Source: an uncultured Desulfohalobiaceae bacterium
GTDB taxonomy: Bacteria; Desulfobacterota; Desulfovibrionia; Desulfovibrionales; CAZUBS01
NCBI GenBank assembly: GCA_964594925.1
Contig: CAZQOG010000002.1
Coordinates: forward strand, 389 to 64,388
Reading direction: 5' to 3'
DNA: 64,000 nt
Positions 12,187-31,820 of this stretch are shown in pieces; the first letter of the stretch is position 1, and every line of letters starts with the position of its first letter. The notes under the pieces are model-generated. The model was not told the DNA's origin. It made no database searches and worked only from the letters and a program-made list of their open reading frames with translations. The translations under genes were made by a program, and so were the position numbers.

Positions 12187-12207
12187 TATTTCAACTCCTC
12201 ACGTTTT

Positions 12208-13650: not shown

Positions 13651-14919
13651 TTACTCCACCACCCCGCACCAGCGAACAGCGAACAGGGCGTAGGCCCTGG
13701 CCGTGTGCAGGACCGAGTCAAGGCGGACCCGCTCGTCCGCCCCGTGGATGTTTTCGGCCACCGGCCCGTAGCAGCACCCCCGCGCCCGGCCAAAGGAGTA
13801 GAAGGCGCGCAGGTCGGTTGTGCAGGTGGAGACATAGCTGTCCGGTTCGTTGCCGGTCAGCTCGCGGTGACAGCCGGAGAGCACAACCAGTGGGGGGGCA
13901 TCCGGCTGTTCGACATGACCGTCGGAGCGGAACCCGTAGAACTCTACCTGCGGGGGGTTCTCCCGCAGCCACGGGTCCTGTTCGGCCGCCCGGGACACTG
14001 TCTCTGTTATGCGCGTGCGCATGGCGGCAAACGTGGTTCCGGGAAAATAGGAGAGCCGGCAGTGGAACTCTGCGTCGGCCGGGACAGTGGAAGGCCAGTC
14101 CCCTCCGTTGAGCATGCCCACATTGAGGTTGAGGGGGTGGTCAAAGCCCTCGTAGGGCGGGGGCAGGGGGGGCTGGTTCAACTCTTCTTCCAGCTCCCGG
14201 AGGGCCGTGATCAGGGGAAAGCACTTTTCCAGGGCGTTGGCGCCGGCCCCCGCTTCCAGCACGTGCACCGGCCGCCCCCCCACCCGGACCCTGAACCAGA
14301 GCACCCCCACCTGGGCGGTGTACAGCCGGGGGCCGAAGGGTTCGGGGATGAGCACGGCCCGGGCATCGACCCCGGCAGCCCGGCAGGCCAGGGCCCCGTT
14401 GCCCGAGCACTCCTCCTGGACGACCGCCTCCAGGGTCAGGGGGGCGGCCAGGCCGAAACCGGCCCTGCGGATGGCCGCGGCCGCATAGGTCATGGCCGCC
14501 ACACCCGACTTCATGTCGCCGGAGCCGCGTCCGTGCATCCAGCCGTCGCGCACCAGGGGGTCGAAGGGGTCACTGGACCACAGACGGGAAGGCTCGGGGC
14601 TGACCACGTCCAGGTGGCCGTTGAACAGGGCGCTGCGGCCGGTTGTCGCCCCTGGCTGGATCTCCGAGACCAGGCAGTGGGACGTGTGGGAGGCCAAAGG
14701 CATGGGCCCGTAGCCCGGATGAGCGTTCAAGGCGGCGTGGTCCACGGGGATGCGCCTGACCGGCAGGCCCAGCCGTTCGAGCTCCTCCTCCATGACCTGG
14801 AGGGTACCAGCCTCGTTGCCCACGGTGCTGGGCTCGGCCACCAGCCGGGCGGTGAAGTCGAAGATGTCCTCGGACAGGGCTTCAACAGCGGTGATGACGG
14901 CTTGCTCTCGTCGGTCCAT
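13651..14919 (-). CDS. M20-family ArgE/DapE-type deacylase (metallopeptidase)
   Basis: ORF track 13651..14949; start at ATG 14919 or 14949. LFNGHLDVVSP...WSSDPFDPLVRDGWMHGRGSGDMKSGVAA is the M20 ArgE/DapE metal-site pattern. Confidence 0.8.
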   Translation of the reverse strand: MDRREQAVITAVEALSEDIFDFTARLVAEPSTVGNEAGTLQVMEEELERLGLPVRRIPVDHAALNAHPGYGPMPLASHTSHCLVSEIQPGATTGRSALFNGHLDVVSPEPSRLWSSDPFDPLVRDGWMHGRGSGDMKSGVAAMTYAAAAIRRAGFGLAAPLTLEAVVQEECSGNGALACRAAGVDARAVLIPEPFGPRLYTAQVGVLWFRVRVGGRPVHVLEAGAGANALEKCFPLITALRELEEELNQPPLPPPYEGFDHPLNLNVGMLNGGDWPSTVPADAEFHCRLSYFPGTTFAAMRTRITETVSRAAEQDPWLRENPPQVEFYGFRSDGHVEQPDAPPLVVLSGCHRELTGNEPDSYVSTCTTDLRAFYSFGRARGCCYGPVAENIHGADERVRLDSVLHTARAYALFAVRWCGVVE

Positions 14920-14929
14920 GGTGCCTCTG

Positions 14930-15580
14930 TCAGAAGCGCGGGATCTCACCCGTGGGAACGGTCACCTCGGCCTCGGTCCTGCTGAGCATGTCCGCAAGGT
15001 CGGCTTCTTTGGCCAGCTCGCGCAGCACCAGGCCCTGTGGGGTCACGTCCAGCACTGCCAGCTCGGTGACAATGGTGGTCACGCATTTTTTAGCGGTGAC
15101 CGGCAGGGAGCAGCGTTTCAGGATCTTGGGACGCCCTTTGCCCGTGGTGTGGGTGGTGGTCACGATGACCTTGCGGGCCTTCTGGGCCAGCTCCATGCCC
15201 CCGCCGATGCCGGGCGCGAACCTGCCGGGGATGACCCAGTTGGCCAGGTCACCCCCCCCGCTGACCTCCAGGGTGCCCAGGATGGCCACGTCGAGCCGGC
15301 CGCCCCGGACCAGGGCAAAGGACAGGGCGGAGTCGAAAAAGGCGGCCCCGGGGCGCAGCTGCACGTAGTCACCCCCGGAGTCGATCAGGCATGGGTCCTC
15401 GGTCCCCCTCGGGCAGCGCGGCCCCATGCCCAGGATGCCGTTCTCGGAGTGGACAAAGATGTCCACCCCCGGGGGCAGATGCTGCAGGACGCGGGTGGGC
15501 AGGCCGATACCCAGGTTGACCACCTGGCCGGAGACAAGCTCGGCAGCGGTGCGCTGTGCGATCCTGGTCTTAGGCGACAT
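14930..15580 (-). CDS. 3-oxoacid CoA-transferase, subunit B
   Basis: MSPKTRIAQRTAAELVSGQVVNLGIGLPT is the subunit-B N-terminus. ATG 15580 overlaps the end of subunit A by 11 nt; TTG 15589 is an alternative start. Confidence 0.88.
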   Translation of the reverse strand: MSPKTRIAQRTAAELVSGQVVNLGIGLPTRVLQHLPPGVDIFVHSENGILGMGPRCPRGTEDPCLIDSGGDYVQLRPGAAFFDSALSFALVRGGRLDVAILGTLEVSGGGDLANWVIPGRFAPGIGGGMELAQKARKVIVTTTHTTGKGRPKILKRCSLPVTAKKCVTTIVTELAVLDVTPQGLVLRELAKEADLADMLSRTEAEVTVPTGEIPRF

Positions 15581-16265
15581 GGTTCTCAAGCACCTCGTAC
15601 TCTTTCATGCCGGTGGCCACGGGCACGACATGGTCCACAAAAGCGCCGGGGGTGTGGATGTGGTCAGGGTCGAGCTCGCCGATGTCCACGATCTCCCGCG
15701 CTTCAGCCACCACGAGGTCCGCGGCCGTGGCCATGAGGGGGTTGAAGTTGCGGGCTGTCTTTTCGAAGATCAGGTTGCCCCAGCGGTCGGCCCTGGCCGC
15801 ATGCACAAGGGCCACCTCGGCCCGCAGAGCCGGCTCCACTATGTAGCGGCGCCCCCTGAAGGAGGTTGTTTCCCGCTGCTCGGCCAGGATCGTCTCCAGC
15901 CCGATGTCCGTGAGAAAGGCGGCCAGGCCCGCCCCACCGGCTCTGATCTTTTCGGCCAGGATGCCCTGGGGGTGCATTTCCACCTCCAGCCGGCCCTGGT
16001 TCATCATCTCGATGGCCAGGGCGTTGAGGCCCATGTGCGAGACGATGAACCGCTTGGCGCGGCCGGCCTCGAACAAGGTGGATATGCCCATGCCCTGCTC
16101 GTTGGCGTCGTTCTTGATCAGGGTCAGCCCTGCTGCACCCTGCTCCAGCAGGGCGGCAATGAGCGTGAAGGGGGTGCCTGGGGCGCCGAACCCCCCGATC
16201 ATGACGCGTGAGCAGTGGGCCACGGTGCGCAGTGCCCCGGCAGGGGTGGTGGTCTTGTCGATCAT
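15570..16265 (-). CDS. 3-oxoacid CoA-transferase, subunit A
   Basis: 231-aa ORF. VMIGGFGAPGTPFTLIAALLEQGAAGLTLIKNDAN is typical of family-I CoA-transferase subunit A. ATGA overlap with the upstream fusion gene. Confidence 0.88.
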   Translation of the reverse strand: MIDKTTTPAGALRTVAHCSRVMIGGFGAPGTPFTLIAALLEQGAAGLTLIKNDANEQGMGISTLFEAGRAKRFIVSHMGLNALAIEMMNQGRLEVEMHPQGILAEKIRAGGAGLAAFLTDIGLETILAEQRETTSFRGRRYIVEPALRAEVALVHAARADRWGNLIFEKTARNFNPLMATAADLVVAEAREIVDIGELDPDHIHTPGAFVDHVVPVATGMKEYEVLENHVA

Positions 16266-18601
16266 CCGTGCCTCTTCATGGTGCCCGGGGTGCGCAGCCC
16301 CGGGGTGGGGAAGGCCGGATCCAGGGCCTCCACGCCGGCATCGGCCAGGTAGCGGCTGGTTCTCTTCAAGGCCCGCTCCAGCTTGTCCAGCAGCTCGCCG
16401 ATCTGCTTCTCATTGATAATCAGCGGCGGGGCCACCAGCACGTGGTCGCCGAACAGGCCATTGATCGAGCGGCGGGGGTAGATGATCAACCCCTCCTCAA
16501 AGGCGTTGTCTGTGAGCACCATGGCCGCGTTCCACTCCGGTGGGAAGGGGTCGCGGGTCGCTGTGTCGCGCACCAGCTCAATCGCGGTCAAAAGCCCCAG
16601 GCCGCGGACGTTGCCGATGATGCTGTACCGGTCTTGCAGCTGCTCCAGGCCGTGCAGCAGGACCTTGCCCATGGCTGCGGCGTTCTCCGGCAGCTGCTCC
16701 TCCAGGATGATGTTCAGCACCTCCAGACCTACGGTGCAGGCCATGGGGTTGCCCGCGTAGGTGTGTCCGTGGGCGAATCCTCCACGGGAGACCACGGCAT
16801 TGACGATCTCCTGGGAGGTCAGAACCGCCCCCAGGGGGTAGTAGCCCGAGGCAATGCCCTTGGACAGGGCGATGATGTCCGCCTCCACCCCCCAGTGCTC
16901 GTAGGCGAACAGCCTGCCGGTGCGCCCGAACCCGGTCATGACCTCGTCCAGGATGAGCAGCACGCCGTATTTGCGGCAGATGTGCTGGATGACCGCGAAG
17001 TACTCCTTGGGGGGCACCAGGGCGCCGGTGCTGGCCCCGCCCACCGGCTCGGTCACGAAAGCGGCCACGTTGTCCGGACCTTGCTCCAGGATGACCCGCT
17101 CCAGGGCCCAGGCGCACTCCAGGCCGCAGTCCGGGTAGGTCTGGTGGTAGACGCAGCGGTAGCAGTAGGGAGCGGGAATCTTGGGGTAGTCGCGCACCAG
17201 GGGTTTGAAGGCCACCTCCAGGGGGGCGTAGGATGTCAGGGCCAGGGCGCCGAGGGTGGCTCCGTGGTAGGAGGGGACCCGGCTGATGAACTTGTAGCGT
17301 GAGCCCTCCCCCAGGTTGAAAAAGTACTGGCGGCAGACCTTCATGGCCGACTCCACCGCCTCAGAGCCTCCAGAGACGTAGAAGACCTTGTTCAGGTGCG
17401 GGGAGGTATGCTGGACCAGCTTCTTTGCCAGACGCTTGGAAGGCTCGTTCTCGAACTGGGTGCGGTAGGCGAAGAAGGTCCGCTGGGCCTGCTGCTCCAT
17501 GGCCGCAATGACCCGCTTGTCGCCGTGCCCGATGTTGTTGACCACCGCCCCTGAAGAGCCGTCCAGGTACCGTTTCCCCACGGTGTCCCACATGTAGATG
17601 CCCTTGGACTTGGCAATGGTGGGCTGGCGTTTCTTGGTCTGGTAGAAAAGAAACTGCTCCTGGTCGGGGTAGGCGGCCAGCTCTGCGGGGTGGACCTTGA
17701 ACAGCTCGGGGTTTGAGGCGTGGAAGCGGTTGAGCTTTTCCACGGGTGTGAGGCGGCCCAGGCTGCGCAGGGGGATGTGGGTGTTGTACACGTAGCAGTA
17801 GGAGAGCAGCTTCTTTTCCAGCTCCTCGCTGGAGGCGAAGGGGGAGTAGGCCAGCTCAGAGAGCCCTGACAGGAGCTGGGACTCACCGGGCGCGGGGTCC
17901 GGGTAGACGTGCTGCTCTATGGAAAGCTCCCGGCAGGCAGCGGCAAAAAAATGGTCGTGGTCGGATCCTTCCGAAGTGAAGGCTGGGCGGTCGGCAGTGA
18001 GCACGCGCCAGATGCAAAAAGGGGCGGCCTGGCTCAGGTTGCGCAGAAACCCGGCGGCCGAGTCCGGTGAGCCATCCGGCCGGGTTTCCATGAAGATCCA
18101 GCTGGTGGCCCGGTCAACCGACAGAAAAAGGTGCTTGCGGAAGGTCTCGTCCTGCATGCGGGGCAGGGAGCGTTCGTAGAGGCGCATGTGTCCCGGCAGG
18201 TACCGCTGGTGTTTGCGGACAACCGCCTTGTGCTCCTCGATGTCCGGGACCAGCTCGCCCACGCGGCACACCCCGTGGCGGCGCAGCAGCCTGTCCAGTG
18301 AGGACCGTGAGCAGGAGGGCATGAGAAAGGTCCGGACCACGGTGAGCAGGTCGTCAAGGGACAAGAGCAGGATGCGGCGGATCTCGACGATGAGCAGCTC
18401 CTGCTCCAGCGTGAACAGCACGCTGGAGTGGGCAGTGCAGTCCCGGGTCTGGACCTTTCCGGCCCGGCTGCGCCATTTGCGGACGGTTGCGATGCTCAGC
18501 CCCAGCTCGTTGGCCAGCTCGGCCACGGAGTCAGTGGACTCCTGAATATATCTGCCGATCTCGGGAGTGACAGTGATCTTCCAGTTCTTTCTCAGCCCCA
18601 T
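16262..18601 (-). CDS. fusion protein: degenerate IS481-type transposase (HTH + rve-like, DDE lost) N-domain + complete class-III aminotransferase C-domain
   Basis: Single 779-codon ORF. Residues 1 to about 301 (nt 17699-18601) are transposase-like; residues about 315-779 are aminotransferase (GSEAVESAMK, YHGATLGALALT, DEVMTGFGRTGRLFAYEHWGVEADIIALSKGIASG). See the finding at 16262-18601. Confidence 0.8.
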   Translation of the reverse strand: MGLRKNWKITVTPEIGRYIQESTDSVAELANELGLSIATVRKWRSRAGKVQTRDCTAHSSVLFTLEQELLIVEIRRILLLSLDDLLTVVRTFLMPSCSRSSLDRLLRRHGVCRVGELVPDIEEHKAVVRKHQRYLPGHMRLYERSLPRMQDETFRKHLFLSVDRATSWIFMETRPDGSPDSAAGFLRNLSQAAPFCIWRVLTADRPAFTSEGSDHDHFFAAACRELSIEQHVYPDPAPGESQLLSGLSELAYSPFASSEELEKKLLSYCYVYNTHIPLRSLGRLTPVEKLNRFHASNPELFKVHPAELAAYPDQEQFLFYQTKKRQPTIAKSKGIYMWDTVGKRYLDGSSGAVVNNIGHGDKRVIAAMEQQAQRTFFAYRTQFENEPSKRLAKKLVQHTSPHLNKVFYVSGGSEAVESAMKVCRQYFFNLGEGSRYKFISRVPSYHGATLGALALTSYAPLEVAFKPLVRDYPKIPAPYCYRCVYHQTYPDCGLECAWALERVILEQGPDNVAAFVTEPVGGASTGALVPPKEYFAVIQHICRKYGVLLILDEVMTGFGRTGRLFAYEHWGVEADIIALSKGIASGYYPLGAVLTSQEIVNAVVSRGGFAHGHTYAGNPMACTVGLEVLNIILEEQLPENAAAMGKVLLHGLEQLQDRYSIIGNVRGLGLLTAIELVRDTATRDPFPPEWNAAMVLTDNAFEEGLIIYPRRSINGLFGDHVLVAPPLIINEKQIGELLDKLERALKRTSRYLADAGVEALDPAFPTPGLRTPGTMKRHG

Positions 18602-18938: not shown

Positions 18939-18967
18939 TTGACAAATGAAAACCCGCCCCATACCAT
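18939..18967 (+). promoter_or_regulatory. candidate sigma70-type promoter for the ABC-transporter operon
   Basis: TTGACA (18939-18944), 17-nt spacer, TACCAT (18962-18967), about 100 nt upstream of ATG 19068. A 7-bp inverted repeat ggcagtg-N5-cactgcc sits just upstream at 18914-18932. Consensus match only. Confidence 0.35.
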
Positions 18968-19067: not shown

Positions 19068-19931
19068 ATGTCTGAAAAATCGGGCTGGAAACCCTGGGCA
19101 CTGTTGGCCCCCTCCCTGAGCGCGGTCTTCTTCCTGCTGGTCGTCCCGGTCTGCTTTATCATAGTCTACAGTTTCTGGCTCCGCGCTCCAAGCGGTGCGG
19201 ACATCCCGGCCTTCCAGTTCGGAAACTACGCCAAGTTCTTCCAGGACTTCTTCTACTCCTCCATTTTGCTGCGCACCATCAGGGTCAGCCTGGAGTGCGT
19301 GGCCCTGTGCCTGGTCATGGGGTACATCCCCGCATATTTCTTCTACCGCACCCGGACCCGTTTCCGGGGGGTGCTCATGCTGCTGATCATGCTCCCGTTC
19401 TGGATCAGCTTCATCATCCGCACCCTGTCCTGGATCAACATTTTGGGGGACACCGGCCTGATCAACTACGTGCTGACCAGCACCGGAATCCTCTCCGAAC
19501 CGCTGGGCATGCTCTACAACGAGGGCGCGGTGCTCATGGGGCTGATCCAGTACCTGCTGCCCTTCATGATTTTGAACATCTACGTCAGCCTGGAAGGCAT
19601 CGACAAAAGCCTGCTCGAGGCGGCCCGGTCCATGGGCTGCACCGAGTGGCAGGCCTTCAAGGAGGTCACCCTGCCCCTGTCCCTGCCCGGGGTCAGCGCC
19701 GGCAGCCTGCTGGTCTTCGTGCTCACCGCGGGCACCTACCTGCCGCCCATGATCCTCGGCGGGCCGGGCAACGAGATGATCGCCAACCTGATCTTCAAGC
19801 GGGTCATCGGAACCCTGGACTGGCCGTTCGGGTCTGCCATCAGCGTTGTGCTGCTGCTGCTCGTGGGGACCATCGTCTGGACCTACAACCGTTACCTGGG
19901 CATCAACCAGGTCTTCAAGGCCATGCAATAG
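19068..19931 (+). CDS. ABC transporter permease, PotB/spermidine-putrescine type
   Basis: 287-aa ORF with 6 predicted hydrophobic segments. EAA-loop-like LEAARSMGCTEWQAFKEVTLPLSLPG. Confidence 0.85.
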   Translation: MSEKSGWKPWALLAPSLSAVFFLLVVPVCFIIVYSFWLRAPSGADIPAFQFGNYAKFFQDFFYSSILLRTIRVSLECVALCLVMGYIPAYFFYRTRTRFRGVLMLLIMLPFWISFIIRTLSWINILGDTGLINYVLTSTGILSEPLGMLYNEGAVLMGLIQYLLPFMILNIYVSLEGIDKSLLEAARSMGCTEWQAFKEVTLPLSLPGVSAGSLLVFVLTAGTYLPPMILGGPGNEMIANLIFKRVIGTLDWPFGSAISVVLLLLVGTIVWTYNRYLGINQVFKAMQ

Positions 19932-19938
19932 GGAAAGA

Positions 19939-20730
19939 ATGGTGCGGATTTCCGGCTGGTCACTCATCAAGCTCTACACCATCCTGGTGTACGTGTTCAT
20001 GTTCGCCCCCATCGTGGTGGTGATCATCCTGGCCTTCAACCCGCAGCAGTTCGGCTCTTTTCCCATGGACGGATTCAGCCTGCGCTGGTTCGTCAAGCTG
20101 GCCCAGAACGAGGTCATCCTCATGGCCTTCAAGAACTCCCTGGTCCTGGGCAGCCTGACCGCTGTCTGCACCACCCTTGTGGCCATACCCGCGGCCATGG
20201 CCTTTGTGCGCTACGAGTTCCCGGGAAAAAACAGCCTGAACACCCTGCTGCTGGCCCCGATCATGGTGCCCGAAGTCATCCTGGGCGTGGCCCTGCTGCT
20301 GTTCATCCGCTGGCTGCAGCAACCCAAAAGCTTTGCCCTCTTGCTCGTCGGCCACGTGGTCATCACCCTGCCGTATGTCCTTCTCGTGGTGCAGGCCAGG
20401 CTGGTGGGCATCAGGACCGACTATGAGGAAGCTGCCAAATCCCTGGGCGCCAACGCCTTTCAGACCTTTCGGGAGATCACCCTGCCCCTGCTTCTCCCAG
20501 CCATCTTCGCCGGCATGCTCTTCTCCTTCACCATCTCCTTTGACGACATCACGGCCACGTTGTTCTGGGCAACGGCCCAGAACCAGACGGTGCCGGTCAA
20601 GATATTCGGCATGCTGCGCAACTCCATCAGCCCGGAGATCAACGCCCTGGGCGCGGTCATGATCGTGCTCACGGTGTCAACGCCCCTTCTGGCCGGTTAT
20701 CTGGCCAGGCGTTTCGCCAGGGGAAAGTGA
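19939..20730 (+). CDS. ABC transporter permease, PotC type
   Basis: ORF track 19846..20730, trimmed to ATG 19939 (MVRISGWSLIKLYTILVYVFMFAPIVVVIILAFN). EAAKSLGANAFQTFREITLPLLLPA. Confidence 0.85.
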   Translation: MVRISGWSLIKLYTILVYVFMFAPIVVVIILAFNPQQFGSFPMDGFSLRWFVKLAQNEVILMAFKNSLVLGSLTAVCTTLVAIPAAMAFVRYEFPGKNSLNTLLLAPIMVPEVILGVALLLFIRWLQQPKSFALLLVGHVVITLPYVLLVVQARLVGIRTDYEEAAKSLGANAFQTFREITLPLLLPAIFAGMLFSFTISFDDITATLFWATAQNQTVPVKIFGMLRNSISPEINALGAVMIVLTVSTPLLAGYLARRFARGK

Positions 20731-20799
20731 AACCCGGCCGAAAGACCCGGCCATTTTTCAGGGCGGGGGGATCCCTGCTCAAAACTCAAGGAGGACGAG

Positions 20800-21957
20800 A
20801 TGTCTGATGTTTGGAAGAAACGTGTGGAAGATGTGCACGCCCGGTATGAAGCTGGTGAGCTCTCCCGCCGCGATTTTTTGCGGTTCATGGTCATAGCGGG
20901 CACGGCAGCGGGACTGGCAGGCGGCCCCTTCGGCCTGCTTGGTTCGGCCCAGGCAGCCGACTCCATCCGTTTCGACGGCTGGGGCGGGACAACATCCGAG
21001 GCCTTTCGCAAGTATGCCTTCGATCCCTTCACCAAGGCCACGGGCATCGAGGTCATCGACGGGGAGTTCGGGGACATGGACTCCTATCTGACCCGGGTCA
21101 AGGCCTCCTTTCCCCCGGGGGGCGAGTACAACCTGGCCCACCTGTCCGGGGTGTTCGACTACGCCCGCTACGTGGGTCTGGGCTTCAACTCCGCCCTGGA
21201 CGAGAGCGAGATACCCAACCTGTCCCTGGTCATGCAGGCCATGGTCAAGCCCTACTACGCCATTACTCCGGGATCCCTGTCCGCTGTGCCCTACGACCTC
21301 GGGCAGACCGGCATTGCCTACAACACCAAGCATATCTCAAAGGAAAAGGCTGAAAAACTTGGGGCCGGGATCCTGTTCGAGGAGACCCTGAAGGACAAGA
21401 TCGGCTCCTGGACGGACTGGCGCACCAACATCTGGTACGCAGCCCTGTACACCGGCCAGAACCCCAACGACATCAGCGATTTGGACAAGGTCTGGAAGGC
21501 CCTGCGCAAGCAGCGCGACCTGATCAAGAAGTACTGGGGATCGGGCGCCGAGCTGATGAGCCTGCTGGCCAATGAGGAGATCTACGCCACACCGGCCTGG
21601 TCCGGGCGGGTCTACCATCTGCAGGAGCAGGGACACCCCATCGGGTACCTGGCGCCGGAAGGCACCTACTCCTGGCAGGAGTGCATCTTCGTCATCAAGG
21701 GCACCGACCTGGACACGGCCCACAAGCTGCTCAACTTCATGCTCGAGCCAGAGGCGGCCATTGCCGTGGCCGATGCCCAGAAGTATCCGCCCAGCCTGGA
21801 CCCGTCCAAGGTGGACATGCCTGAATCGGTCTCCAAGCTGCCGGCCTTCGATCCCACCGGGCAGCTCAAGGGGTACCTGTTCGGCGTGCCGGACTACTGG
21901 AACGGGCACCAGCTGGAGTGGGCGGAGCAGTGGGACCGCATCATGGCCGGCGCTTAG
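20800..21957 (+). CDS. periplasmic substrate-binding protein, PotD/PotF family, with twin-arginine signal
   Basis: 385-aa ORF behind AAGGAGGA. SRRDFLRFMVIAGTAAGLAGGPFGLLGSAQA is a Tat-type signal. Mature part is SBP_bac_1/PotD-like in length. Confidence 0.8.
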   Translation: MSDVWKKRVEDVHARYEAGELSRRDFLRFMVIAGTAAGLAGGPFGLLGSAQAADSIRFDGWGGTTSEAFRKYAFDPFTKATGIEVIDGEFGDMDSYLTRVKASFPPGGEYNLAHLSGVFDYARYVGLGFNSALDESEIPNLSLVMQAMVKPYYAITPGSLSAVPYDLGQTGIAYNTKHISKEKAEKLGAGILFEETLKDKIGSWTDWRTNIWYAALYTGQNPNDISDLDKVWKALRKQRDLIKKYWGSGAELMSLLANEEIYATPAWSGRVYHLQEQGHPIGYLAPEGTYSWQECIFVIKGTDLDTAHKLLNFMLEPEAAIAVADAQKYPPSLDPSKVDMPESVSKLPAFDPTGQLKGYLFGVPDYWNGHQLEWAEQWDRIMAGA

Positions 21958-22081
21958 CAATCAGTTGAAAAATCCCGGCTGGCTTCGTTGCTGCGGCCAG
22001 GTCAAACCCTCACGTATATGGTATACGCTTCGGACTTGACCAGGCCTTGCGCCTCGCCAGCCAGGTTTTTGAACTGATTGC
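21957..22081. repeat. 125-nt near-perfect long palindrome (extended hairpin) starting in the stop codon of the binding-protein gene
   Basis: Nested complementary blocks: gcaatcagttgaaaaa/tttttgaactgattgc (15 of 16), cccggctggc/gccagccagg (9 of 10), ggccaggtcaa/ttgaccaggcc (10 of 11). Apical stem cgtata-tgg-tatacg (6 of 6). Confidence 0.85.
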
Positions 22082-22099
22082 AATCCGCCCTGCGGGCGA

Positions 22100-22220
22100 G
22101 TTCGAAGTTCGAAGCTCGAAGCTGAGAGCAAGGGAAAGAAAAGAAGCTGAAGCAAGGCTTCAGCAGTATTGCCTCCGGCCGGCCGGTCCTATCGGTCCTA
22201 CAGTGACGGCCGGCCGGAGG
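22100..22220. repeat. GAAG heptads followed by two further hairpins in the same intergenic region
   Basis: Heptads gttcgaa gttcgaa gctcgaa gctgaga (22100-22127). 8-bp stem gctgaagc/gcttcagc (22146-22164). 14-bp GC stem cctccggccggccg/cggccggccggagg (22172-22220) whose loop holds two nonamer-type units, gtcctatcg gtcctacag. Confidence 0.85.
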
Positions 22221-22273
22221 CTTCACCACAGCGCTGTCCGGCAGCACAGCATGTAACGCGAAGAGGAACACCA

Positions 22274-23392
22274 GTGGCTACCGGTACCAACCAACCCGTT
22301 GTCCAGCTCAAAGGGCTCATGAAGCGCTTCGGCAGGACCCTGGCCGTCGAGAAGATGGACCTGTCCATTGCACAGGGGGAGCTGGTGACGCTGCTCGGCC
22401 CCTCGGGGTGTGGGAAGACGACAATCCTGCGCATGATCGCCGGGTTGGAGAAACCCACCGAAGGCGATATCTACATCAAGGGAAAGTGGGTCAACGACAC
22501 CCCCATCCACAAGCGGAACCTGGGCATGATCTTCCAGAACTACGCCCTGTTCCCGCACAAGACCATCTTCGACAACGTGGCCTTCGGGCTCAAGTACCGC
22601 GATGTCCCAAAAAGTCAGATGAAAGAGAAGGTCTCCAATGCCCTGGAGATGGTCCGGCTGCCCGGCGTGGAGAAACGCTACTCGGCCCAGCTTTCCGGAG
22701 GGCAGCAGCAGCGCATCGCACTGGCCCGGGCCATTGTCATCGAGCCCGACGTGCTGCTCATGGACGAACCCTTGTCCGCCCTGGACGAGAAGCTGCGGGA
22801 GGAGATGCGCATGGAGATCGACAACCTGCAGCAGAAGCTGGGGCTGACCACCATCTTCGTCACCCATGACCAGCGGGAGGCCCTGTCCATGTCCACCAGG
22901 ATCGTGGTCATGAAGGACGGACGCAAGCAGCAGGAAGGCGAGCCCGAGGACGTCTACGACTACCCCTCCAACCGTTTTGTGGCCGACTTCCTGGGCCACT
23001 CCAACTTCTACGAGGCCAGGGTGACCGGCCACACCTCGGACGGGTACACCAAGGTGGTGACCAGGGACGGCCTGGAGTTCGTGACCGAGCACCCGGGGGA
23101 GTGGGTCGAGGGACAGGAGGTGACCCTGGTCATCAGGGCCCAGAAGCTGAACCTGACCAGCCCCGGCCAGGAGGAGGAGCTCGAGTCCACAGCAGTGAAC
23201 CTCTACAACGGCACCATTTACGACCGCAGCTACATGGGGGGCGAGACCAGCTATTTCGTCGAGCTGGAAGGAGGGGTCAGGCTGCACGCCATCAGCATGG
23301 TCAGGCGCCGGCCCCACCGGATCGGCGACCCGGTGGTCCTGCACGTCCCGCCCCGGCACTGCGGGCTCCTGGCCCGGGAGGAAGCCCCGTAG
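22274..23392 (+). CDS. ABC transporter ATP-binding protein, PotA type
   Basis: ORF track 22169..23392, trimmed to GTG 22274 (AGAGGA upstream). Walker A GPSGCGKTT, signature LSGGQQQRIALARA, Walker B LLMDEPLSALD. Confidence 0.88.
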   Translation: MATGTNQPVVQLKGLMKRFGRTLAVEKMDLSIAQGELVTLLGPSGCGKTTILRMIAGLEKPTEGDIYIKGKWVNDTPIHKRNLGMIFQNYALFPHKTIFDNVAFGLKYRDVPKSQMKEKVSNALEMVRLPGVEKRYSAQLSGGQQQRIALARAIVIEPDVLLMDEPLSALDEKLREEMRMEIDNLQQKLGLTTIFVTHDQREALSMSTRIVVMKDGRKQQEGEPEDVYDYPSNRFVADFLGHSNFYEARVTGHTSDGYTKVVTRDGLEFVTEHPGEWVEGQEVTLVIRAQKLNLTSPGQEEELESTAVNLYNGTIYDRSYMGGETSYFVELEGGVRLHAISMVRRRPHRIGDPVVLHVPPRHCGLLAREEAP

Positions 23393-23435
23393 CAGCCGGC
23401 TCTCAAACAGGCTTTGCCCCGGAACACCCCCTTCA

Positions 23436-24464
23436 ATGGACCTCGCACACCTGAGCGCTTTTTTTGCGGGCCGCCATGACCAGGCCCTGGTCACGGTTGA
23501 CTCCCACACGGCCGGTGAGCCCACCCGTCTTGTCGTGGGGGGGCTCCCGCCGCTTCCCGGGGCCACCATGGCCGAGAAACGCGCCTACTTCATGGAGCAC
23601 CTGGACCATGTGCGACTGCTCCTGACCCGGGAGCCGCGCGGCCACCGGGACATGCTGGCCGCAGCCGTGACCGAGCCGTGCACACCGGGCGCCGACTTCG
23701 GCCTGATCTACATGGACGCCAGGCGCTACCCTTTTCTGTGCGGCCACGCCACCATCGGGGCAGTGACCACCTTGGTGGAGTGCGGGGTCATCAAGGCAAA
23801 GGGGTCCAGGGTCAGGGTCACGGTGGACACCCCGTCCGGCCCCATGCCCGCCCTGGCATCCCTTGATGGGGGGCGGGTCGTGAGCGTGTCCTACCATTCG
23901 GTCCCCTCGTTCGTTGCGGCCCGGGACAAGCCCTTGGAGGTGGAAGGGCTGGGCCGAATACCGGTGGACCTGGTCTGCGTGGGCGGCTACTTCGCCATGG
24001 TCGATGCCGTTAATACCGGCTTGGAACTGGTGCCGGAAAACGGACCCGAGCTTGTCAGGCTGGGCATGCGCATCGTTTCCTCGGCCAATCGCCAGTTTCA
24101 GGTCAGCCATCCCCTGCGGCCGGAGGTGGGCAGCATCGATGTGGCCGAAATCCATGCAAGCAGGGGAAGCGAAGGGATCAACGCCGTGGTCTATGGTGAG
24201 TCCCATCTGGACCGGTCCCCCTGCGGCACGGGGACCACGGCCAAGCTGGCGCTGCTGCATGCCCGGGGGCAGCTGGAGCGGGAGGAGCTTTTCGTGAACA
24301 GGAGCATGCTGGGCCAGGCCTTCACCGGGAGGATCGTGGCCGTGACCACTGTGGGCGACTACCCGGCCGTGGTGGCCGAAATCAGCGGGTCGGCCCACAT
24401 GACCGGGCTGCACAGGTTCTTTTGTGATCCTGACGACCCCTACCCCCGGGGGTTTCTGCTGTGA
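23436..24464 (+). CDS. proline racemase / 4-hydroxyproline epimerase family protein (Cys/Cys catalytic pair)
   Basis: 342-aa ORF. VDSHTAGEPTRLV, FLCGHATIG (first Cys) and DRSPCGTGTTA (second Cys) are the family motifs. Confidence 0.85.
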   Translation: MDLAHLSAFFAGRHDQALVTVDSHTAGEPTRLVVGGLPPLPGATMAEKRAYFMEHLDHVRLLLTREPRGHRDMLAAAVTEPCTPGADFGLIYMDARRYPFLCGHATIGAVTTLVECGVIKAKGSRVRVTVDTPSGPMPALASLDGGRVVSVSYHSVPSFVAARDKPLEVEGLGRIPVDLVCVGGYFAMVDAVNTGLELVPENGPELVRLGMRIVSSANRQFQVSHPLRPEVGSIDVAEIHASRGSEGINAVVYGESHLDRSPCGTGTTAKLALLHARGQLEREELFVNRSMLGQAFTGRIVAVTTVGDYPAVVAEISGSAHMTGLHRFFCDPDDPYPRGFLL

Positions 24465-26089
24465 GCCCCACGCCAGAGCTCATTCTCTGCAATGCAAAGG
24501 TGCGGACCCAGGACCCCGGACAGCCGTCTGCCCAGGCCCTGGCCATAGCCGGCGGCCGCATCACCGCCGTGGGGGACGATGGGACGATCCTGGGGCTCGC
24601 CGGCAGGGGGACGCGTCGCCTCGATCTGGAGGGGCGTCTGGTCCTGCCCGGCTTCATGGACTCCCACTTTCATTTCTACGACTGGAGCCTCTACCAGGAC
24701 CTGGCCGGGGTGAGCAGCTTCCAGGGGCTGGAAACCGCCCTGGCCGGCGCTGCTGCCCGGGAGGTGCCGGGGAGCTGGGTCCTGGGGCAGGGCTTCAACG
24801 AGACCGACTGGCCCGACGGACGCATCCCCGAGCGGGAGGATCTGGACCGGGTCACAGGGGACGTCCCCACCGTGATCTGGCGCTGCGACCTGCACCTGGC
24901 AGTGGCCAACACGGCCGCACTTGTCCGGGCGGGCATTGACGGGGCGGCCATCCCCGATCCCCCGGGAGGGGTCATCGCCCGGGACCGGACGGGCCGCCCC
25001 ACAGGGGTCCTCAGGGAGACGGCCATCAACCTGGTCAAGGACTGCATTCCGCAGGTCAGCGACGGGGAGCGGCTGCGGGCCATGGAGCAGGCCCAGGAGC
25101 GGCTGCATGCCTGCGGCATCACCGCGCTGCACGACCTGCGGCTCAAGGGGGAGCGGGACGCACCCAGGGCCATGCGGCTCTTCCAGCGCCTGGACCGCGA
25201 GGGGAGGCTGGCTATGCGCACCTGGGTCAGCCTGCCCGGGGAGCGCCTGGACGAGGCCGTGGCCCTTGGCCTGGCCGCAGGATTCGGCAGCGAAAGGCTG
25301 CGGCTGGGGCACGTCAAGTACTTTGCCGACGGGGGCATGGGGGCACGCACGGCCAGCGTGCTTGAGCCCTACCTGGACGCGGGGTGCGGCCTGAGCCAGA
25401 TGGGGGTCGGGGAGAGTGCGGCGGTTTTGCGCACAGCCGAGCAGGCCGGTCTGGCGGTCATGATCCACGCTGTGGGCGACCGTGCCGTTTCCGAGGTCAT
25501 CAGCGCCTTTGAGGCGCTCGAAGAGTGGCGGTCCTCACCCGAGGCACGGGACGTGCCCCGCCCGCCCCTGATGCACCGCATCGACCACTTGCAGATGGTC
25601 AGACCAAAGGACCTGGCGCGCCTGGCCCGCCTGAAGGTCGCCGTGGGCATGCAGCCCAGCAACATGGTCCTGGACTTCAACCTCATCGACCGCTGCCTGG
25701 GCGACAAGGGCAGGTACGCCTACACCTTTCGCAGCGTGCTCGAATCGGGCATACCCACCCTGTTCAACTCGGACTGCCCGGTCAGCGACCCCAGGCCGCT
25801 CATGGGCATCCACGCCCTGGTGACCCGGCAGCGCCCGGACTCCACCCCTGAAGGGGGTTGGTACCCTAAGCAGCGCATCAGCGTGGACCAGGCCGTGGCC
25901 GGGTACACCAGCACCCCCGCCCTGGCCTATGGGGCAACGCAGCAGGGCAGGATAGGGCGGGGGATGCTGGCGGACCTGGCCGTGCTGGACAGAAATATCT
26001 TCGCCATAGAGCCCCATGAGATCCAGGCCGCCCGGGTGGACCTGACCCTGTTCAACGGCCGGATCGTGTACGAGCGACCCGGAGCCTGA
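24461..26089 (+). CDS. amidohydrolase-3 (YtcJ-like) metal-dependent hydrolase
   Basis: 542-aa ORF. GTG start overlaps the upstream stop (GTGA). VLPGFMDSHFHF metal-binding start motif, HAVGDRA, and C-terminal GSLEPGKxAD-like GMLADLAVLD. Confidence 0.8.
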   Translation: MSPTPELILCNAKVRTQDPGQPSAQALAIAGGRITAVGDDGTILGLAGRGTRRLDLEGRLVLPGFMDSHFHFYDWSLYQDLAGVSSFQGLETALAGAAAREVPGSWVLGQGFNETDWPDGRIPEREDLDRVTGDVPTVIWRCDLHLAVANTAALVRAGIDGAAIPDPPGGVIARDRTGRPTGVLRETAINLVKDCIPQVSDGERLRAMEQAQERLHACGITALHDLRLKGERDAPRAMRLFQRLDREGRLAMRTWVSLPGERLDEAVALGLAAGFGSERLRLGHVKYFADGGMGARTASVLEPYLDAGCGLSQMGVGESAAVLRTAEQAGLAVMIHAVGDRAVSEVISAFEALEEWRSSPEARDVPRPPLMHRIDHLQMVRPKDLARLARLKVAVGMQPSNMVLDFNLIDRCLGDKGRYAYTFRSVLESGIPTLFNSDCPVSDPRPLMGIHALVTRQRPDSTPEGGWYPKQRISVDQAVAGYTSTPALAYGATQQGRIGRGMLADLAVLDRNIFAIEPHEIQAARVDLTLFNGRIVYERPGA

Positions 26090-26119
26090 AGGCCCCGGCA
26101 GAACCACGAGGTGTCCGTC

Positions 26120-27217
26120 ATGACCTTTTCCCTGCCCGCCTACCTCCCCCCCGTCTTTGATGCCGAGCCCCTGCGCAGTGCGCCCACGGCTGTGTTTAAG
26201 CCGGCCCCTGCAGACGGTGTGGCCCCGGACAACTACCACGGCACGTCCATCTTCCCCGAGTATGTCCACCTGCAGCCGGGCCGCTGGGAGCTGATCCGCA
26301 ACTCGCGCATGGACTGCGTCGTGGTGCTGCGGCCGGGGGGCGCTGTGGAGACGGTTGAGTTCAGGAGGCTGCAGAAGGGCGACCAGGTGGCCGTGGGCCG
26401 CACCGAAAGCGGTCAGGACGGAATCCTGGTTCACGACACCGGGTTTGCGGCCCAGGCAGGGGAGGTGGAGAAGTTCGCCTTCCGGACCCGCATCACCCGC
26501 GAGTCCTCATTCTCCATCGACTACGACACCATGTACGATTTGCTGCGCTTCGAGCGGGACAAGGGGCACATCGTCTGGGTGGCGGGGCCGGCCGTGGTCT
26601 TTGACTCTGACGCGCGCAAGGCCTTTGTCCGGCTCATCGAGCAGGGGTTCGTGCACGGCCTGCTGGCGGGCAACGCCCTGGCCGCCCACGACATCGAAGC
26701 GGCCATGTTCCAGACCGCTCTGGGCCAGGGCATCTACCACAAGGTCCCGGCCCGGTTGGGACACTACCACCACCTGGACGCCATCAATGCGGTGCGCCGG
26801 GCCGGCTCCATCCGGGGAGCCGTGGAGCAGGGGCTGATACCGGACGGGGTCATGCGCGCCCTGGAAGAAAAAGGCGTCCCCTCTGTGCTGGCCGGGTCCA
26901 TCCGGGACGACGGCCCCCTGCCGGACGTGATCGGCGATGTGTACCAGGGGCAGGACGCCATGCGCCGGGTGGCCTCACGGGCCACGACCGTCATCACCCT
27001 GGCCACCCAGCTCCACTCCATTGCCACCGGCAACATGACGCCCTCCTACCAGGTCGACGCCGCGGGCCGGGTCAGGCCGGTCTACTTCTTCTGCGTGGAC
27101 ATCTCCGAGTTTGCCGCGGACAAGCTGGCCAACCGCGGCTCCCTGACCGTGCACGCCATCTTGACCAATGTGCAGGATTTCATAGTTACCTGCGCGAGAA
27201 ACCTGACAAACGGCTGA
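26120..27217 (+). CDS. conserved protein with a TIGR00300 (LOR/SDH-associated, archaeal ornithine-cyclodeaminase-like) C-terminal domain; function uncertain
   Basis: ORF track 26111..27217 (GTG); ATG 26120 is likelier. The C-terminal two thirds (LLAGNALAAHDIE...GHYHHLDAINAVRRAGSI...LAGSIRDDGPLPDVI) match my recollection of TIGR00300 proteins. The N-terminal roughly 130 aa do not look like the usual LOR/SDH N-domain. Confidence 0.5.
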   Translation: MTFSLPAYLPPVFDAEPLRSAPTAVFKPAPADGVAPDNYHGTSIFPEYVHLQPGRWELIRNSRMDCVVVLRPGGAVETVEFRRLQKGDQVAVGRTESGQDGILVHDTGFAAQAGEVEKFAFRTRITRESSFSIDYDTMYDLLRFERDKGHIVWVAGPAVVFDSDARKAFVRLIEQGFVHGLLAGNALAAHDIEAAMFQTALGQGIYHKVPARLGHYHHLDAINAVRRAGSIRGAVEQGLIPDGVMRALEEKGVPSVLAGSIRDDGPLPDVIGDVYQGQDAMRRVASRATTVITLATQLHSIATGNMTPSYQVDAAGRVRPVYFFCVDISEFAADKLANRGSLTVHAILTNVQDFIVTCARNLTNG

Positions 27218-27243
27218 GAATCGATTCTCAGCCGTTTGTCAGG
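27202..27243. terminator. 42-bp perfect palindrome overlapping the stop codon (hairpin/terminator candidate)
   Basis: cctgacaaacggctgagaatc|gattctcagccgtttgtcagg has 21+21 nt with no mismatch and centre ATCGAT. The TGA of the upstream gene (27215-27217) lies in the left arm. No U-tract. Confidence 0.5.
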
Positions 27244-27320: not shown

Positions 27321-27416
27321 CTTTTCTTGCTTCGAGCTTTAAGCCTCGAGCCCTATTCTTCTTGCTTCGAGCTTCCAGCTTCCAGCTTCGAGCTTTATTC
27401 TTCTTGTTTCGAGCCA
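27321..27416. repeat. composite GAAG-family heptad region with a higher-order ttcttcttgYttcgagc repeat
   Basis: Read directly: ...ttcttgcttcgagcttt aagcctcgagccct attcttcttgcttcgagcttccagcttccagcttcgagcttt attcttcttgtttcgagcc. Confidence 0.85.
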
Positions 27417-27443: not shown

Positions 27444-27478
27444 CATCCTTCCGCCCTCATCCTTCATCCTTTTCTTCC
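27444..27478. repeat. CATCCTT heptad array (reverse complement of the AAGGATG family)
   Basis: catcctt ccgccct catcctt catcctt ttcttcc. Overlaps the last codons and stop of the MerR-like gene (…EEKDEG*). Confidence 0.85.
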
Positions 27479-27780
27479 CGCAGCCTCTCCCTGATCTCGG
27501 TCAGCTCGCGCTCCACCAGGGTCAGGATTTCGCCGTACTCCTGCTTCTGGTCCAGGAGGCGGCGGGCCCCTTCGATGGTCATGCCGCGCTCGTGCAGCAG
27601 GTGCTTGATGCGCCTGAGCAGGAGCATGTCGGCCTCGGAGTAGAGGCGCTGGCCTCGGAAGGTGCGCTCGGGCCTGAGCTGGTGGAACTCGCTTTCCCAG
27701 AAGCGAAGCACATAGGGCTCCAGGCCGAGCTGCTCCGCGGCCTCCCCTATCTTGTGCTTCTTGCCGGGCGATTTGCTCAC
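27457..27780 (-). CDS. MerR-family transcriptional regulator
   Basis: 107-aa ORF. HTH IGEAAEQLGLEPYVLRFWESEF and RTFRGQRLYSEADMLLLRRIKHLL are MerR-type. Sits directly downstream of pheT. Confidence 0.85.
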   Translation of the reverse strand: MSKSPGKKHKIGEAAEQLGLEPYVLRFWESEFHQLRPERTFRGQRLYSEADMLLLRRIKHLLHERGMTIEGARRLLDQKQEYGEILTLVERELTEIRERLREEKDEG

Positions 27781-31716: not shown

Positions 31717-31820
31717 AAGTTCGAAGTCAGAAGCTCGAAGTCGGAAGGACGATGGGTTGCCTCAGGCTTGCAAGGCCTTGTAACAGTGCCTTTCCTTCGA
31801 AATTCGAACTTCCGACTTCC
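31717..31820. repeat. inverted GAAG-heptad arrays between rpmI and rplT
   Basis: Arm 31717-31748: aagttcgaag tcagaag ctcgaag tcggaag g. Arm 31794-31820: ccttcgaaattcgaacttccgacttcc. On the mRNA (minus) strand the second arm is followed by CTTTTTT and then the AAGGAGA SD of rplT. A CGCGCG-agcag-CGCGCG hairpin sits at 31825-31841. Confidence 0.85.

Follow-up and report, generated by a model that had tools for sequence, protein, structure and literature searches.

Gene content and layout of the locus

We analysed 64,000 nucleotides of a contig from an uncultured Desulfohalobiaceae bacterium (CAZQOG010000002.1, assembly GCA_964594925.1), hereafter the window, and in particular a predicted operon of seven plus-strand genes at window positions 19068-27217, which encodes a Pot-like ATP-binding cassette (ABC) importer and three enzymes. 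Profile searches with Pfam and NCBIfam placed each of the seven genes in the family that an initial annotation, made from the letters of the sequence, had named, and the gene order was also the one described there: permease, permease, binding protein, ATPase, a proline-racemase-superfamily (PRS) enzyme, an amidohydrolase and a TIGR00300-related protein, called the cyclodeaminase below. The operon is divergent from a second one on the minus strand (8888-18601), which contains aminotransferase and aldehyde:ferredoxin oxidoreductase (AOR) genes, as that annotation had also stated. We tentatively read the plus-strand operon as a composite of a conserved six-gene cassette and a lineage-specific cyclodeaminase, with a back-end route supplied by the divergent operon.

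The GTG start of the amidohydrolase gene overlaps the stop codon of the PRS gene in the tetranucleotide GTGA at 24461-24464, so this overlap, which was reported initially, is real. The remaining gaps measure 7, 69, 43 and 30 nt, with a single long one of 316 nt after the binding-protein gene (21958-22273). This length supposes that the ATPase starts at GTG 22274, which lies behind the ribosome-binding site AGAGGAA and is most likely the true start, in place of TTG 22169. The spacer contains copies of a heptamer repeat of this genome (22105-22121) and a short hairpin (22146-22164). Judged by spacing, co-transcription of the seven genes is plausible, because the distances are short, the 316-nt gap is the only long one and a scan of the plus-strand operon revealed no convincing intrinsic terminator inside it.

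Regarding the signals at both ends of the operon, a sigma-70-like promoter candidate, found by consensus match only (TTGACA-17-TACCAT, 10/12 matches), lies on the plus strand at 18939-18967, about 100 nt upstream of the first gene and within the 466-nt intergenic region between the divergent operons. A perfect 19-bp hairpin on the plus strand (27202-27243; -35.9 kcal/mol, z-score -6.7) extends over the last five codons of the cyclodeaminase gene and its stop codon, and is a possible operon end. No U tract follows it in the sequence; the palindrome may mark the end of the transcript, stabilise the mRNA or bind a protein. No riboswitch or leader RNA was found in the whole window, where Rfam detected one tRNA only.

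Conservation of a six-gene cassette

The first six genes of the operon, with their order kept, occur in at least 8 other Desulfobacterota contexts, which were found via a search anchored on the amidohydrolase (L083, L175, L166, L168, L170, L171, L172 and L173). Among them are a Desulfobacterales chromosome (L166), Desulfosarcina alkanivorans (L168) and an Olavius symbiont (L170). The amidohydrolase is 65% identical to that of the window in L175, 62% in L083, 56% in L166 and 51-52% in L168, L170, L171, L172 and L173. Across the cassette loci the transporter parts are better conserved (80-92% identity for the permeases and 68-84% for the binding protein) than the enzymes (52-65% for the PRS enzyme and 51-65% for the amidohydrolase). 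The PRS and amidohydrolase genes are adjacent in all nine cassette junctions examined (9/9), as well as in the short contig of a relative (L082), and the stop codon of the former overlaps the start codon of the latter by 4 nt in six of the nine and by 1 nt in L083.

The cyclodeaminase is absent from the cassettes of L083, L175, L166, L168 and L170-L173. The arrangement of amidohydrolase followed by cyclodeaminase is kept in L081 and L082. L081, a metagenome-assembled genome (MAG) labelled Desulfohalobiaceae, is the nearest relative, with an amidohydrolase 95% identical, a cyclodeaminase 97% identical and a right-hand context that matches the window. It is possible, if somewhat short of probable, that Desulfobacterota use the six-gene cassette to take up and convert a small cationic solute derived from an amino acid, by means of a Tat-exported binding protein, a PRS epimerase and an amidohydrolase coupled to it in translation.

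The importer

Both permeases (19068-19931 and 19939-20730, plus strand) belong to BPD_transp_1, and the ATPase (22274-23392, plus strand) combines ABC_tran and TOBE_2. The Pot models of NCBIfam were the top-scoring ones for these three proteins, yet each score stayed under its cut-off: 192 bits against 348 for the PotB-like first permease, 206 against 326 for the PotC-like second permease and 381 against 482 for the PotA-like ATPase. The periplasmic binding protein (20800-21957, plus strand) is a member of the PotD/PotF superfamily that matches SBP_bac_8 and SBP_bac_6 and carries a twin-arginine (Tat) motif, SRRDFLR. It obtained 41.6 bits with the PotD equivalog model (cut-off 582) and 32.6 bits with that of PotF (cut-off 636), and thus is not grouped with the characterised PotD and PotF proteins, a result in support of the initial annotation.

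Compared with PotABCD and PotFGHI of E. coli, both permeases and the TOBE-bearing ATPase belong to the common ABC subfamily, and the binding protein shares the fold family and keeps the aromatic-box positions. However, all four components are under the equivalog cut-offs, the binding protein by more than 500 bits, and the window system differs in its gene order (permease, permease, binding protein, ATPase) and in the Tat signal motif of its binding protein.

The best solved relatives of the binding protein are the putrescine binder 7xjm (E 7e-17), SpuE and the 4-aminobutyrate (GABA) sensor scaffold 6dgv. In the alignment with 7xjm a Trp (AWSG), the W-x-E (SWQE versus FWMD) and a Tyr (KYPP) are retained, and the equivalents of Tyr85 and Glu171 are lost. 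For the Trp, Trp, Tyr and acidic positions we assume the ligand roles of their PotD counterparts. The N-terminal WGGTT motif is closer to the GABA-binding scaffold 6dgv than to PotD. Since the aromatic-box positions and one acidic residue are kept and the N-terminal motif resembles that of the GABA-binding scaffold, the features of the protein fit a small ligand with an ammonium group, and it looks like an amine binder.

The racemase-family enzyme and its amidohydrolase partner

The PRS enzyme (23436-24464, plus strand; Pro_racemase 339 bits) has a Cys/Cys catalytic pair, and the motifs LCGH and DRSPCGTG are present in the alignment of the window protein with 4 cassette orthologues. We read its ligand sites as defined in PMC4364671, according to which proline racemases have Phe at sites 1 and 5, whereas in hydroxyproline epimerases site 4 is His and site 5 is Cys or, in many of them, Tyr. 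The window enzyme has Leu at site 1 (L, L, F, M, M among the five cassette orthologues, the window included) and Val at site 4, and Tyr occupies site 5 in all five. The two Phe residues of the racemases are therefore not found in the window enzyme, and regarding the 4-hydroxyproline 2-epimerases, the Tyr at site 5 agrees and the Val at site 4 disagrees. The enzyme scored 340 bits with the proline racemase model PRK13969 (cut-off 556) and 266 bits with the epimerase model PRK13971 (cut-off 376), and it is under every NCBIfam equivalog cut-off, that of 3-hydroxyproline dehydratase included.

With proline racemase and the bifunctional archaeal TlProR (PMC4364671) the enzyme shares the superfamily, the Cys/Cys pair and the xCGH and DRSPCGTG motifs, at about 40% identity. 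It differs from them at site 1 (Leu or Met, with Phe in one orthologue, versus Phe) and at site 5 (Tyr versus Phe or Trp), and in the loci examined it is always paired with the YtcJ-like amidohydrolase and never with D-proline reductase or hydroxyproline-pathway enzymes. Actually, among the annotated genes of the window and the cassette loci we found no D-proline reductase (PrdA/PrdB), no D-amino-acid oxidase, no DHDPS-like deaminase and no pyrroline-2-carboxylate reductase, and the same holds for the oxidase, deaminase and semialdehyde-dehydrogenase partners of the hydroxyproline pathway.

The amidohydrolase (24461-26089, plus strand) is a YtcJ-like metal hydrolase that matches Amidohydro_3 with 330 bits over positions 3-472 of 472. 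The motifs SHFHF, VKYFADG, IHAVGD, RIDH and FNSDCP were read directly from the translation. They would provide the metal ligands HxH, Lys, His, His and Asp, that is, the motif set of a binuclear carboxylated-lysine hydrolase. Its best solved relatives, 3icj and 3igh, are both uncharacterised, and it obtained 35 and 33 bits with the hydantoinase and dihydropyrimidinase models of NCBIfam, under the cut-offs of 647 and 393. The homologue search returned more than 2,600 homologues, and a literature search for a link between a racemase and YtcJ found nothing relevant.

A hydrolytic release step is likely. A second hydrolase of the M20 or nitrilase type recurs in these loci, and a Firmicute presents an independent grouping of similar genes; these analogies suggest that ornithine or another diamino acid could be what the hydrolases release. 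In the Firmicute locus (L074:6732-11101, a Mediterraneibacter avicola MAG) an Amidohydro_3 gene, 30% identical in its product to the window amidohydrolase and directly followed by a cyclodeaminase homologue, lies divergent from the genes of an M20 hydrolase and a DcuC-type carrier.

The cyclodeaminase

The last gene (26120-27217, plus strand) encodes a putative variant ornithine cyclodeaminase of the nickel-pincer-cofactor type with ArgZ-like_C domains. Its start is most likely ATG 26120, which gives 365 aa as in the 97% identical protein of L081. The longer form passed the model NF052526, "putative NPN-dependent ornithine cyclodeaminase", with 565.6 bits (cut-off 440) over residues 4-366 of 368. 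With TIGR00300, the family to which the initial annotation had compared it, the protein obtained 246 bits, under the cut-off of 411, and only model positions 84-403 were matched, so that it has a shorter N-terminus. The solved structures with which it aligns are 3c2q and, in their C-terminal domains, those of cyanobacterial ArgZ/AgrE (Sll1336, Alr4995); exact-sequence look-ups of the 368- and 365-aa forms gave no match. Nickel-pincer adenine dinucleotide (NPAD) was reported in 2025 as a cofactor for this class of ornithine cyclodeaminases, as cited in PMC13524815.

A scan of 185,579 species genomes anchored on the cyclodeaminase gave 80 loci (L001-L080) with homologues of 51-66% identity. None of the 80 has the transporter or a PRS gene within 10 kb, and in one of them, the Firmicute locus L074, the homologue is directly preceded by an Amidohydro_3 gene. 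The most frequent real neighbour codes for an arginase-fold protein, directly downstream and on the same strand in 10 of the 80 loci, which fits ornithine as the substrate and suggests, by analogy, an arginine to ornithine to proline pair for this subfamily. Carbamate-kinase-like genes are found near the homologue in 6 of these loci. Conversion of ornithine to proline by the last enzyme of the window operon is likely, judging by its family, and thus the ornithine cyclodeamination proposed initially was strengthened, both by the family, now named as a cyclodeaminase acting on ornithine, and by its arginase-fold neighbours.

The other part of that proposal, which joined the three enzymes and the transporter into one unit, did not hold. 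In all 80 loci (80/80) the cyclodeaminase orthologue is found without the transporter, an outcome that the initial annotation had named as a refutation, and the next-closest cassettes (65% and 62% amidohydrolase identity) lack the cyclodeaminase. A single conserved pathway of the three enzymes was therefore rejected, as none of the 80 loci shares the operon. Since the cyclodeaminase is absent from all the other cassettes and its own homologues have no cassette neighbours, save the amidohydrolase of L074, it is an add-on restricted to the window lineage (window, L081 and L082) and not a conserved partner of the cassette. With the NPAD cyclodeaminases, TIGR00300 and the C-domain of ArgZ it shares the ArgZ-like_C domains, but it passes the variant model and not that of the TIGR00300-type enzymes, and, against the 80 loci, its position behind a transporter-racemase-amidohydrolase cassette is unique to the window lineage.

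About 8-16 kb downstream of the operon there is a metal cluster (35236-42939) formed by FeoB (35236-37680), then a NicO-like nickel/cobalt transporter (37890-38966), a protein with an HMA domain (39161-40216) and, last, an HMA P-type ATPase (40327-42939). Of these, the NicO-like transporter is worth noting given the nickel cofactor of the cyclodeaminase family, and no functional link is implied.

The divergent operon

Five of the seven proteins of the minus-strand operon are over curated NCBIfam cut-offs. These are the subunits A (15570-16265; TIGR02429, 226 bits, cut-off 128.5) and B (14930-15589; TIGR02428, 268 bits, cut-off 243.6) of a 3-oxoacid CoA-transferase, an M20 deacylase of the ArgE/DapE family (13651-14949; PRK06837, 455 bits, cut-off 376), an acetyl-CoA C-acetyltransferase, that is, a thiolase of the acetoacetyl-CoA type (12349-13614; PRK06445, 531 bits, cut-off 511), and a 4-aminobutyrate transaminase (10888-12186; TIGR00700, 579 bits, cut-off 506.65). 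The other two are a class-III aminotransferase of 779 aa (16262-18601), with Aminotran_3 at residues 327-745 and 473 bits with PRK06917, under the cut-off, and the AOR (8888-10636; AFOR_N 225 bits, AFOR_C 367 bits). The 779-aa aminotransferase is a candidate beta/omega-amino acid transaminase and a possible local regulator.

The N-terminal region of this aminotransferase, around 315 residues, is an in-frame transposase-derived domain, found in the window (16262-18601), L083:1840-4170 (minus strand), L175:3-167 (minus strand) and L087:7252-8469. In L083 it matches HTH_Tnp_1 with 35 bits, and a weak rve_3 piece was also detected. Between two organisms this domain is 59% identical, versus 74% for the enzyme domain, and many of the codon differences are only synonymous, which indicates that it is under purifying selection. 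Within the stretches retrieved, the loci with the fusion domain contain no IclR gene, unlike L093 and L168. The fusion domain may have been domesticated as a regulator that binds DNA and is joined to its own enzyme.

The two operons recur together, which agrees with the view of the initial annotation that they look like one unit. L083 and L175 repeat the window arrangement, in that the aminotransferase gene with the helix-turn-helix domain is divergent from the cassette; in L083 this gene is followed by those of the CoA-transferase and M20 enzyme, and the downstream genes are unrelated to pheST. Therefore, the neighbourhood of the two-operon unit varies between organisms.

With the aminotransferase as anchor, a metagenome scan located the conserved divergent module in L086-L089 and L092-L094 and a partial set of its genes in L091. 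The module contains the aminotransferase, both CoA-transferase subunits and the M20 gene, to which the longer contigs add the thiolase, the GABA transaminase and the AOR. In L093 an IclR gene, with 52% identity to its counterpart ahead of the L168 cassette, and cassette-type ABC genes (61-81% identity) are followed by the aminotransferase, CoA-transferase, M20 and thiolase genes, all on one strand, and no PRS or amidohydrolase gene is present in that locus. This layout indicates that the transporter serves the PRS-amidohydrolase pair and the divergent module alike. Between the aminotransferase and CoA-transferase genes of L089-L091 lie an ABC system of the polar-amino-acid type and a hydrolase of the creatininase family (PF02633; hydrolase at L089:12216-13067 on the plus strand, L090:12581-13369 and L091:5704-6492), which hold the place that the Pot-like importer and the YtcJ-like hydrolase have elsewhere.

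Linkage to beta-lysine genes and a proposed route

Several cassettes are linked to genes of beta-lysine metabolism. Downstream of the cassette, L168, L170 and L172 carry genes for a class-I aminotransferase and a GNAT protein; the latter, scored in L168, is over the cut-off of the AblB model TIGR03827 for beta-lysine N-acetyltransferase (261 bits against 205). L171 has the class-I aminotransferase after the cassette and lacks the GNAT. In these four loci a KamA-family radical SAM gene of around 820 aa is divergent from the cassette (split in L172), whereas in L173 the cassette is followed on the opposite strand, in convergent orientation, by a nitrilase-type hydrolase and a KamA-like protein of 824 aa. 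In L174 a PRS-amidohydrolase pair is found beside a canonical AblA (lysine 2,3-aminomutase; TIGR03820, 572 bits against 525), an M20 gene and a Liv-type ABC system. Finally, L094 is a single operon with the transporter, the class-III aminotransferase, both CoA-transferase subunits, the M20 gene, an AblB-like GNAT and a lysine 2,3-aminomutase with LAM_C domain.

The KamA-family protein of around 820 aa (L168:872-3334, L170:1231-3693, L171:914-3376 and L173:12497-14971, all on the minus strand) may be an aminomutase. Read by eye from the translation, it has CxxxCxxC in its first half and a second half that resembles a cluster-less KamA-like repeat; its scores of 141-165 bits are far under the cut-offs for lysine, arginine and glutamate aminomutases.

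N6-acetyl-beta-lysine is a major compatible solute of methanogens and of some anaerobic bacteria. Work of the Barker laboratory on Pseudomonas B4, from the 1970s to 1981, reportedly established that L-beta-lysine is N6-acetylated and transaminated to 6-acetamido-3-oxohexanoate, which is cleaved to a 4-acetamidobutyryl unit; this is said to be deacetylated to GABA and then oxidised to succinate. We know of no genes assigned to the breakdown of acetyl-beta-lysine and, to our knowledge, the enzyme entries for acetyl-beta-lysine transaminase and 4-acetamidobutyrate deacetylase have no assigned sequences. A literature search for genes of acetyl-beta-lysine catabolism found nothing relevant.

All six enzyme classes of such a route, namely those for transamination, for activation and cleavage of the 3-oxo acid, for deacetylation, for GABA transamination and for oxidation of the semialdehyde, are found in the one minus-strand operon. 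With predicted substrates, this operon fits the route by offering one enzyme class per step, and so its chemical logic matches that of Pseudomonas B4 step for step. The differences are a CoA-transferase and a thiolase for the single cleavage enzyme, and the AOR for an NAD(P)-dependent semialdehyde dehydrogenase. Moreover, genes for aminomutase and AblB-type acetyltransferase occur in related loci, and neither of them in the window.

Thus, we favour an accessory module for a cationic amino-acid-derived solute of the lysine, beta-lysine or ornithine family, composed of an import-and-conversion cassette and a divergent back-end route, a reading which we consider quite possible but would not call probable. 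The gene families, the conservation of the cassette, the modular combinations and the KamA/AblB linkage are taken from the loci themselves, and we infer from them every substrate and the order of the steps. The importer would take up a solute of the lysine, beta-lysine, N6-acetyl-beta-lysine or ornithine family, or an amide or cyclic-amide derivative of it; the amidohydrolase would open or remove the amide, and the PRS enzyme would invert the alpha-carbon of the resulting imino or diamino acid to give the L-form. In the window lineage, L-ornithine, where formed, would be cyclised to L-proline by the cyclodeaminase. A beta-amino branch would pass through the divergent operon, where the transaminase would give a 3-oxo acid (6-acetamido-3-oxohexanoate), the CoA-transferase and thiolase would convert it to acetyl-CoA and a 4-acetamidobutyryl unit, the M20 deacylase would release GABA and acetate, and the GABA transaminase and AOR would take GABA to succinate.

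Several points weigh against this proposal. The cassette of L166 has none of the linked genes within 10 kb, and homologues of the aminomutase, AblB and IclR are absent from the 64-kb window in tBLASTN searches; if the proposal is right, this implies either that the acetylated solute itself is imported or that these genes are elsewhere in the genome. The Lar cofactor genes (LarB, LarC and LarE) were not found among the window open reading frames annotated with Pfam (64 kb), nor did any stand out among the recurrent neighbours within 6 kb of the 80 cyclodeaminase homologues. We infer, furthermore, that the CoA-transferase and thiolase replace the "cleavage enzyme" of Pseudomonas B4. We can give no definite chemical role to a PRS-type enzyme in beta-lysine metabolism, and ours may simply act on proline or hydroxyproline, given that it is most like true proline racemases and retains the carboxylate- and imino-binding motifs. 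Also, the routes from cadaverine to 5-aminovalerate and from putrescine to GABA likewise use two aminotransferases and an AOR.

Alternative explanations

The likeness to proline racemases leads to an alternative that we consider unlikely, the salvage of proline or hydroxyproline, in which an N-acyl, amide or dipeptide form would be imported, the amidohydrolase would free the imino acid and the PRS racemase or epimerase would interconvert its D and L forms. The cyclodeaminase would add L-proline derived from ornithine, as an osmolyte or nutrient in a likely halophilic sulfate reducer, and the divergent operon would be a mere neighbour. Among solved structures, the PRS enzyme is closest to true or bifunctional proline racemases (7pb3, 265 bits and around 40% identity; 6j7c, 250 bits), the Cys/Cys pair and both binding motifs are retained, the Tyr at site 5 is common in hydroxyproline epimerases (PMC4364671), L-proline is the product of the cyclodeaminase, and the nearest relative (95-97% identity) is labelled Desulfohalobiaceae. 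Nevertheless, the enzyme is under the curated cut-offs for proline racemase, 4-hydroxyproline epimerase and 3-hydroxyproline dehydratase, site 1 is Leu or Met instead of the Phe of racemases, site 4 is Val instead of the His of epimerases, and the usual partner enzymes are absent from the annotated genes of the window and of every cassette locus. Besides, binders of the PotD/F type are not the usual peptide binders, and the recurrent KamA/AblB linkage would be left unexplained. The proline/ornithine substrate of the initial annotation therefore stands only in part: conversion of ornithine to proline by the last enzyme and a hydrolytic release are likely, but the context in relatives favours lysine, beta-lysine or acetyl-beta-lysine over proline or hydroxyproline. 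It is also rather unlikely, though slightly less so, that the cyclodeaminase is functionally independent, as a gene for housekeeping or osmo-protective proline synthesis that came to lie downstream of the cassette by chance and may have its own promoter. Its homologues, mostly alone or by an arginase-fold gene and never near the transporter, as well as its absence from every other cassette, would agree with independence. However, only 30 nt separate it from the amidohydrolase gene, with no terminator-like site between them, the arrangement is kept in L081 and L082, and a pair of Amidohydro_3 and cyclodeaminase genes recurs independently in L074.

The transporter invites another explanation, where putrescine, cadaverine or an N-acetyl or N-carbamoyl derivative would be imported and deacylated by the hydrolases, the 779-aa aminotransferase and AOR would lead to GABA or 5-aminovalerate, the GABA transaminase and AOR to succinate or glutarate, and the CoA-transferase and thiolase would finish the route, the PRS enzyme and the cyclodeaminase being side activities. 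The permeases and the ATPase score best against Pot models, a putrescine binder is the best solved relative of the binding protein, and two class-III aminotransferases with an AOR suit the known putrescine transaminase route. We consider it improbable, since all the Pot scores are under the cut-offs, those of the binding protein far under (42 and 33 against 582 and 636), the tightly coupled and conserved PRS enzyme has no role in it, putrescine needs neither a 3-oxoacid CoA-transferase nor an acetoacetyl-CoA thiolase, and the aminomutase and acetyltransferase genes of the L094 operon are unexplained. Quite improbable, too, is a route that follows the logic of the hydantoinase process, in which the PRS enzyme would epimerise a cyclic amidine, urea or lactam of a diamino acid (ectoine-like, or a ring derived from ornithine or lysine), the amidohydrolase would open the ring, an M20 or nitrilase-type hydrolase would remove the acyl or carbamoyl group and the product would go to the cyclodeaminase or the aminotransferases. 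Hydantoin utilisation and the industrial aminocaprolactam-to-lysine process both pair a racemase with a ring-opening amidohydrolase and a carbamoylase, and loci of the window type similarly bring together a cofactor-independent two-base racemase, a binuclear amidohydrolase, an M20 or nitrilase-type hydrolase and uptake. The HxH and KxxxDG motifs are typical of ring-opening carboxylated-lysine enzymes, the second hydrolase is M20 (window, L083, L174 and L074) or CN_hydrolase (L173), which are two known types of carbamoylase, and the equivalent module of L089-L091 has a cyclic amidohydrolase of the creatininase family. Yet hydantoin racemases belong to the Asp/Glu racemase family and the aminocaprolactam racemase is pyridoxal-phosphate (PLP)-dependent, unlike the PRS enzyme of the window, no natural cyclic substrate is known to give ornithine or lysine in this way, and ectoine catabolism requires neither CoA-transferase nor thiolase. 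Ectoine, beta-glutamate and pyroglutamate were set aside as substrates, since with any one of the three several conserved genes in the divergent operon would be left without an explanation.

Flanking regions and repeats

To the right of the operon there is a MerR-family regulator gene (27457-27780, minus strand; MerR_1 80 bits), at the identical position in L081, and then pheT-pheS-rplT on the minus strand, infC and thrS, with rpmI as called in the syntenic L081. The initial annotation had considered both operons an accessory island inserted beside these housekeeping genes. The two operons do form a modular accessory unit that is found in different neighbourhoods, but a recent insertion is not marked by GC, an integrase or a tRNA. 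The third-position GC of the island genes (0.83-0.90) equals that of the flanking housekeeping genes, and the lower overall GC at 18-22 kb was traced to codon positions 1 and 2 of membrane proteins. Recent horizontal transfer was therefore rejected, as there is no shift in third-position GC and the dip is a membrane-protein effect. No integrase is present among the genes annotated around the island, and Rfam placed the only tRNA of the window at 34677-34748 (minus strand), around 7 kb downstream and beyond thrS, with none at the island edges. This tRNA overlaps the 5' end of the longest thrS reading frame (32667-34718, TTG start), which indicates that the real thrS start is further downstream.

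Tandem arrays of a 7-nt repeat (CTTCGAG, CTTCCAG or CTTCGAA) are present on both strands, nearly all of them intergenic, with 43 matches versus 3.25 expected. They lie at 7346-7376, 10658-10883, 12209-12348, 22105-22121, 27330-27395, 31717-31740, 40330-40360 and 43768-43988, that is, with copies inside both island operons, and constitute a genome-specific intergenic repeat. The copies near 22.1 and 27.3 kb were rejected as insertion boundaries because the repeat is intergenic across the genome.

Conclusions

The single families described here were known. What is new, as combinations, is the conserved cassette, the linkage of its genes to those of aminomutase and acetyltransferase, and a gene set that matches a route described by enzymology and not known to have assigned genes. 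The pairing with a PRS enzyme in the cassette makes the uncharacterised YtcJ-type amidohydrolases, with their more than 2,600 homologues, of interest as a large group, and the recruitment of a nickel-pincer-type cyclodeaminase into a catabolic operon is a small example of the modular use of a recently recognised cofactor family.

A bolder extension, which we regard as doubtful, is that both operons are the first gene set for the acetyl-beta-lysine route, in an anaerobic version with CoA-transferase and thiolase, a tungsten-type AOR and a dedicated ABC importer for an osmolyte of the methanogen or halophile type, and that the reaction of the PRS-amidohydrolase pair is new to the proline racemase superfamily, its substrate being derived from lysine or ornithine instead of being proline or hydroxyproline. 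If it were true, a concrete gene set would close the gap in acetyl-beta-lysine breakdown and would account for the recycling of this solute by sulfate reducers in sediments that are saline and anoxic.

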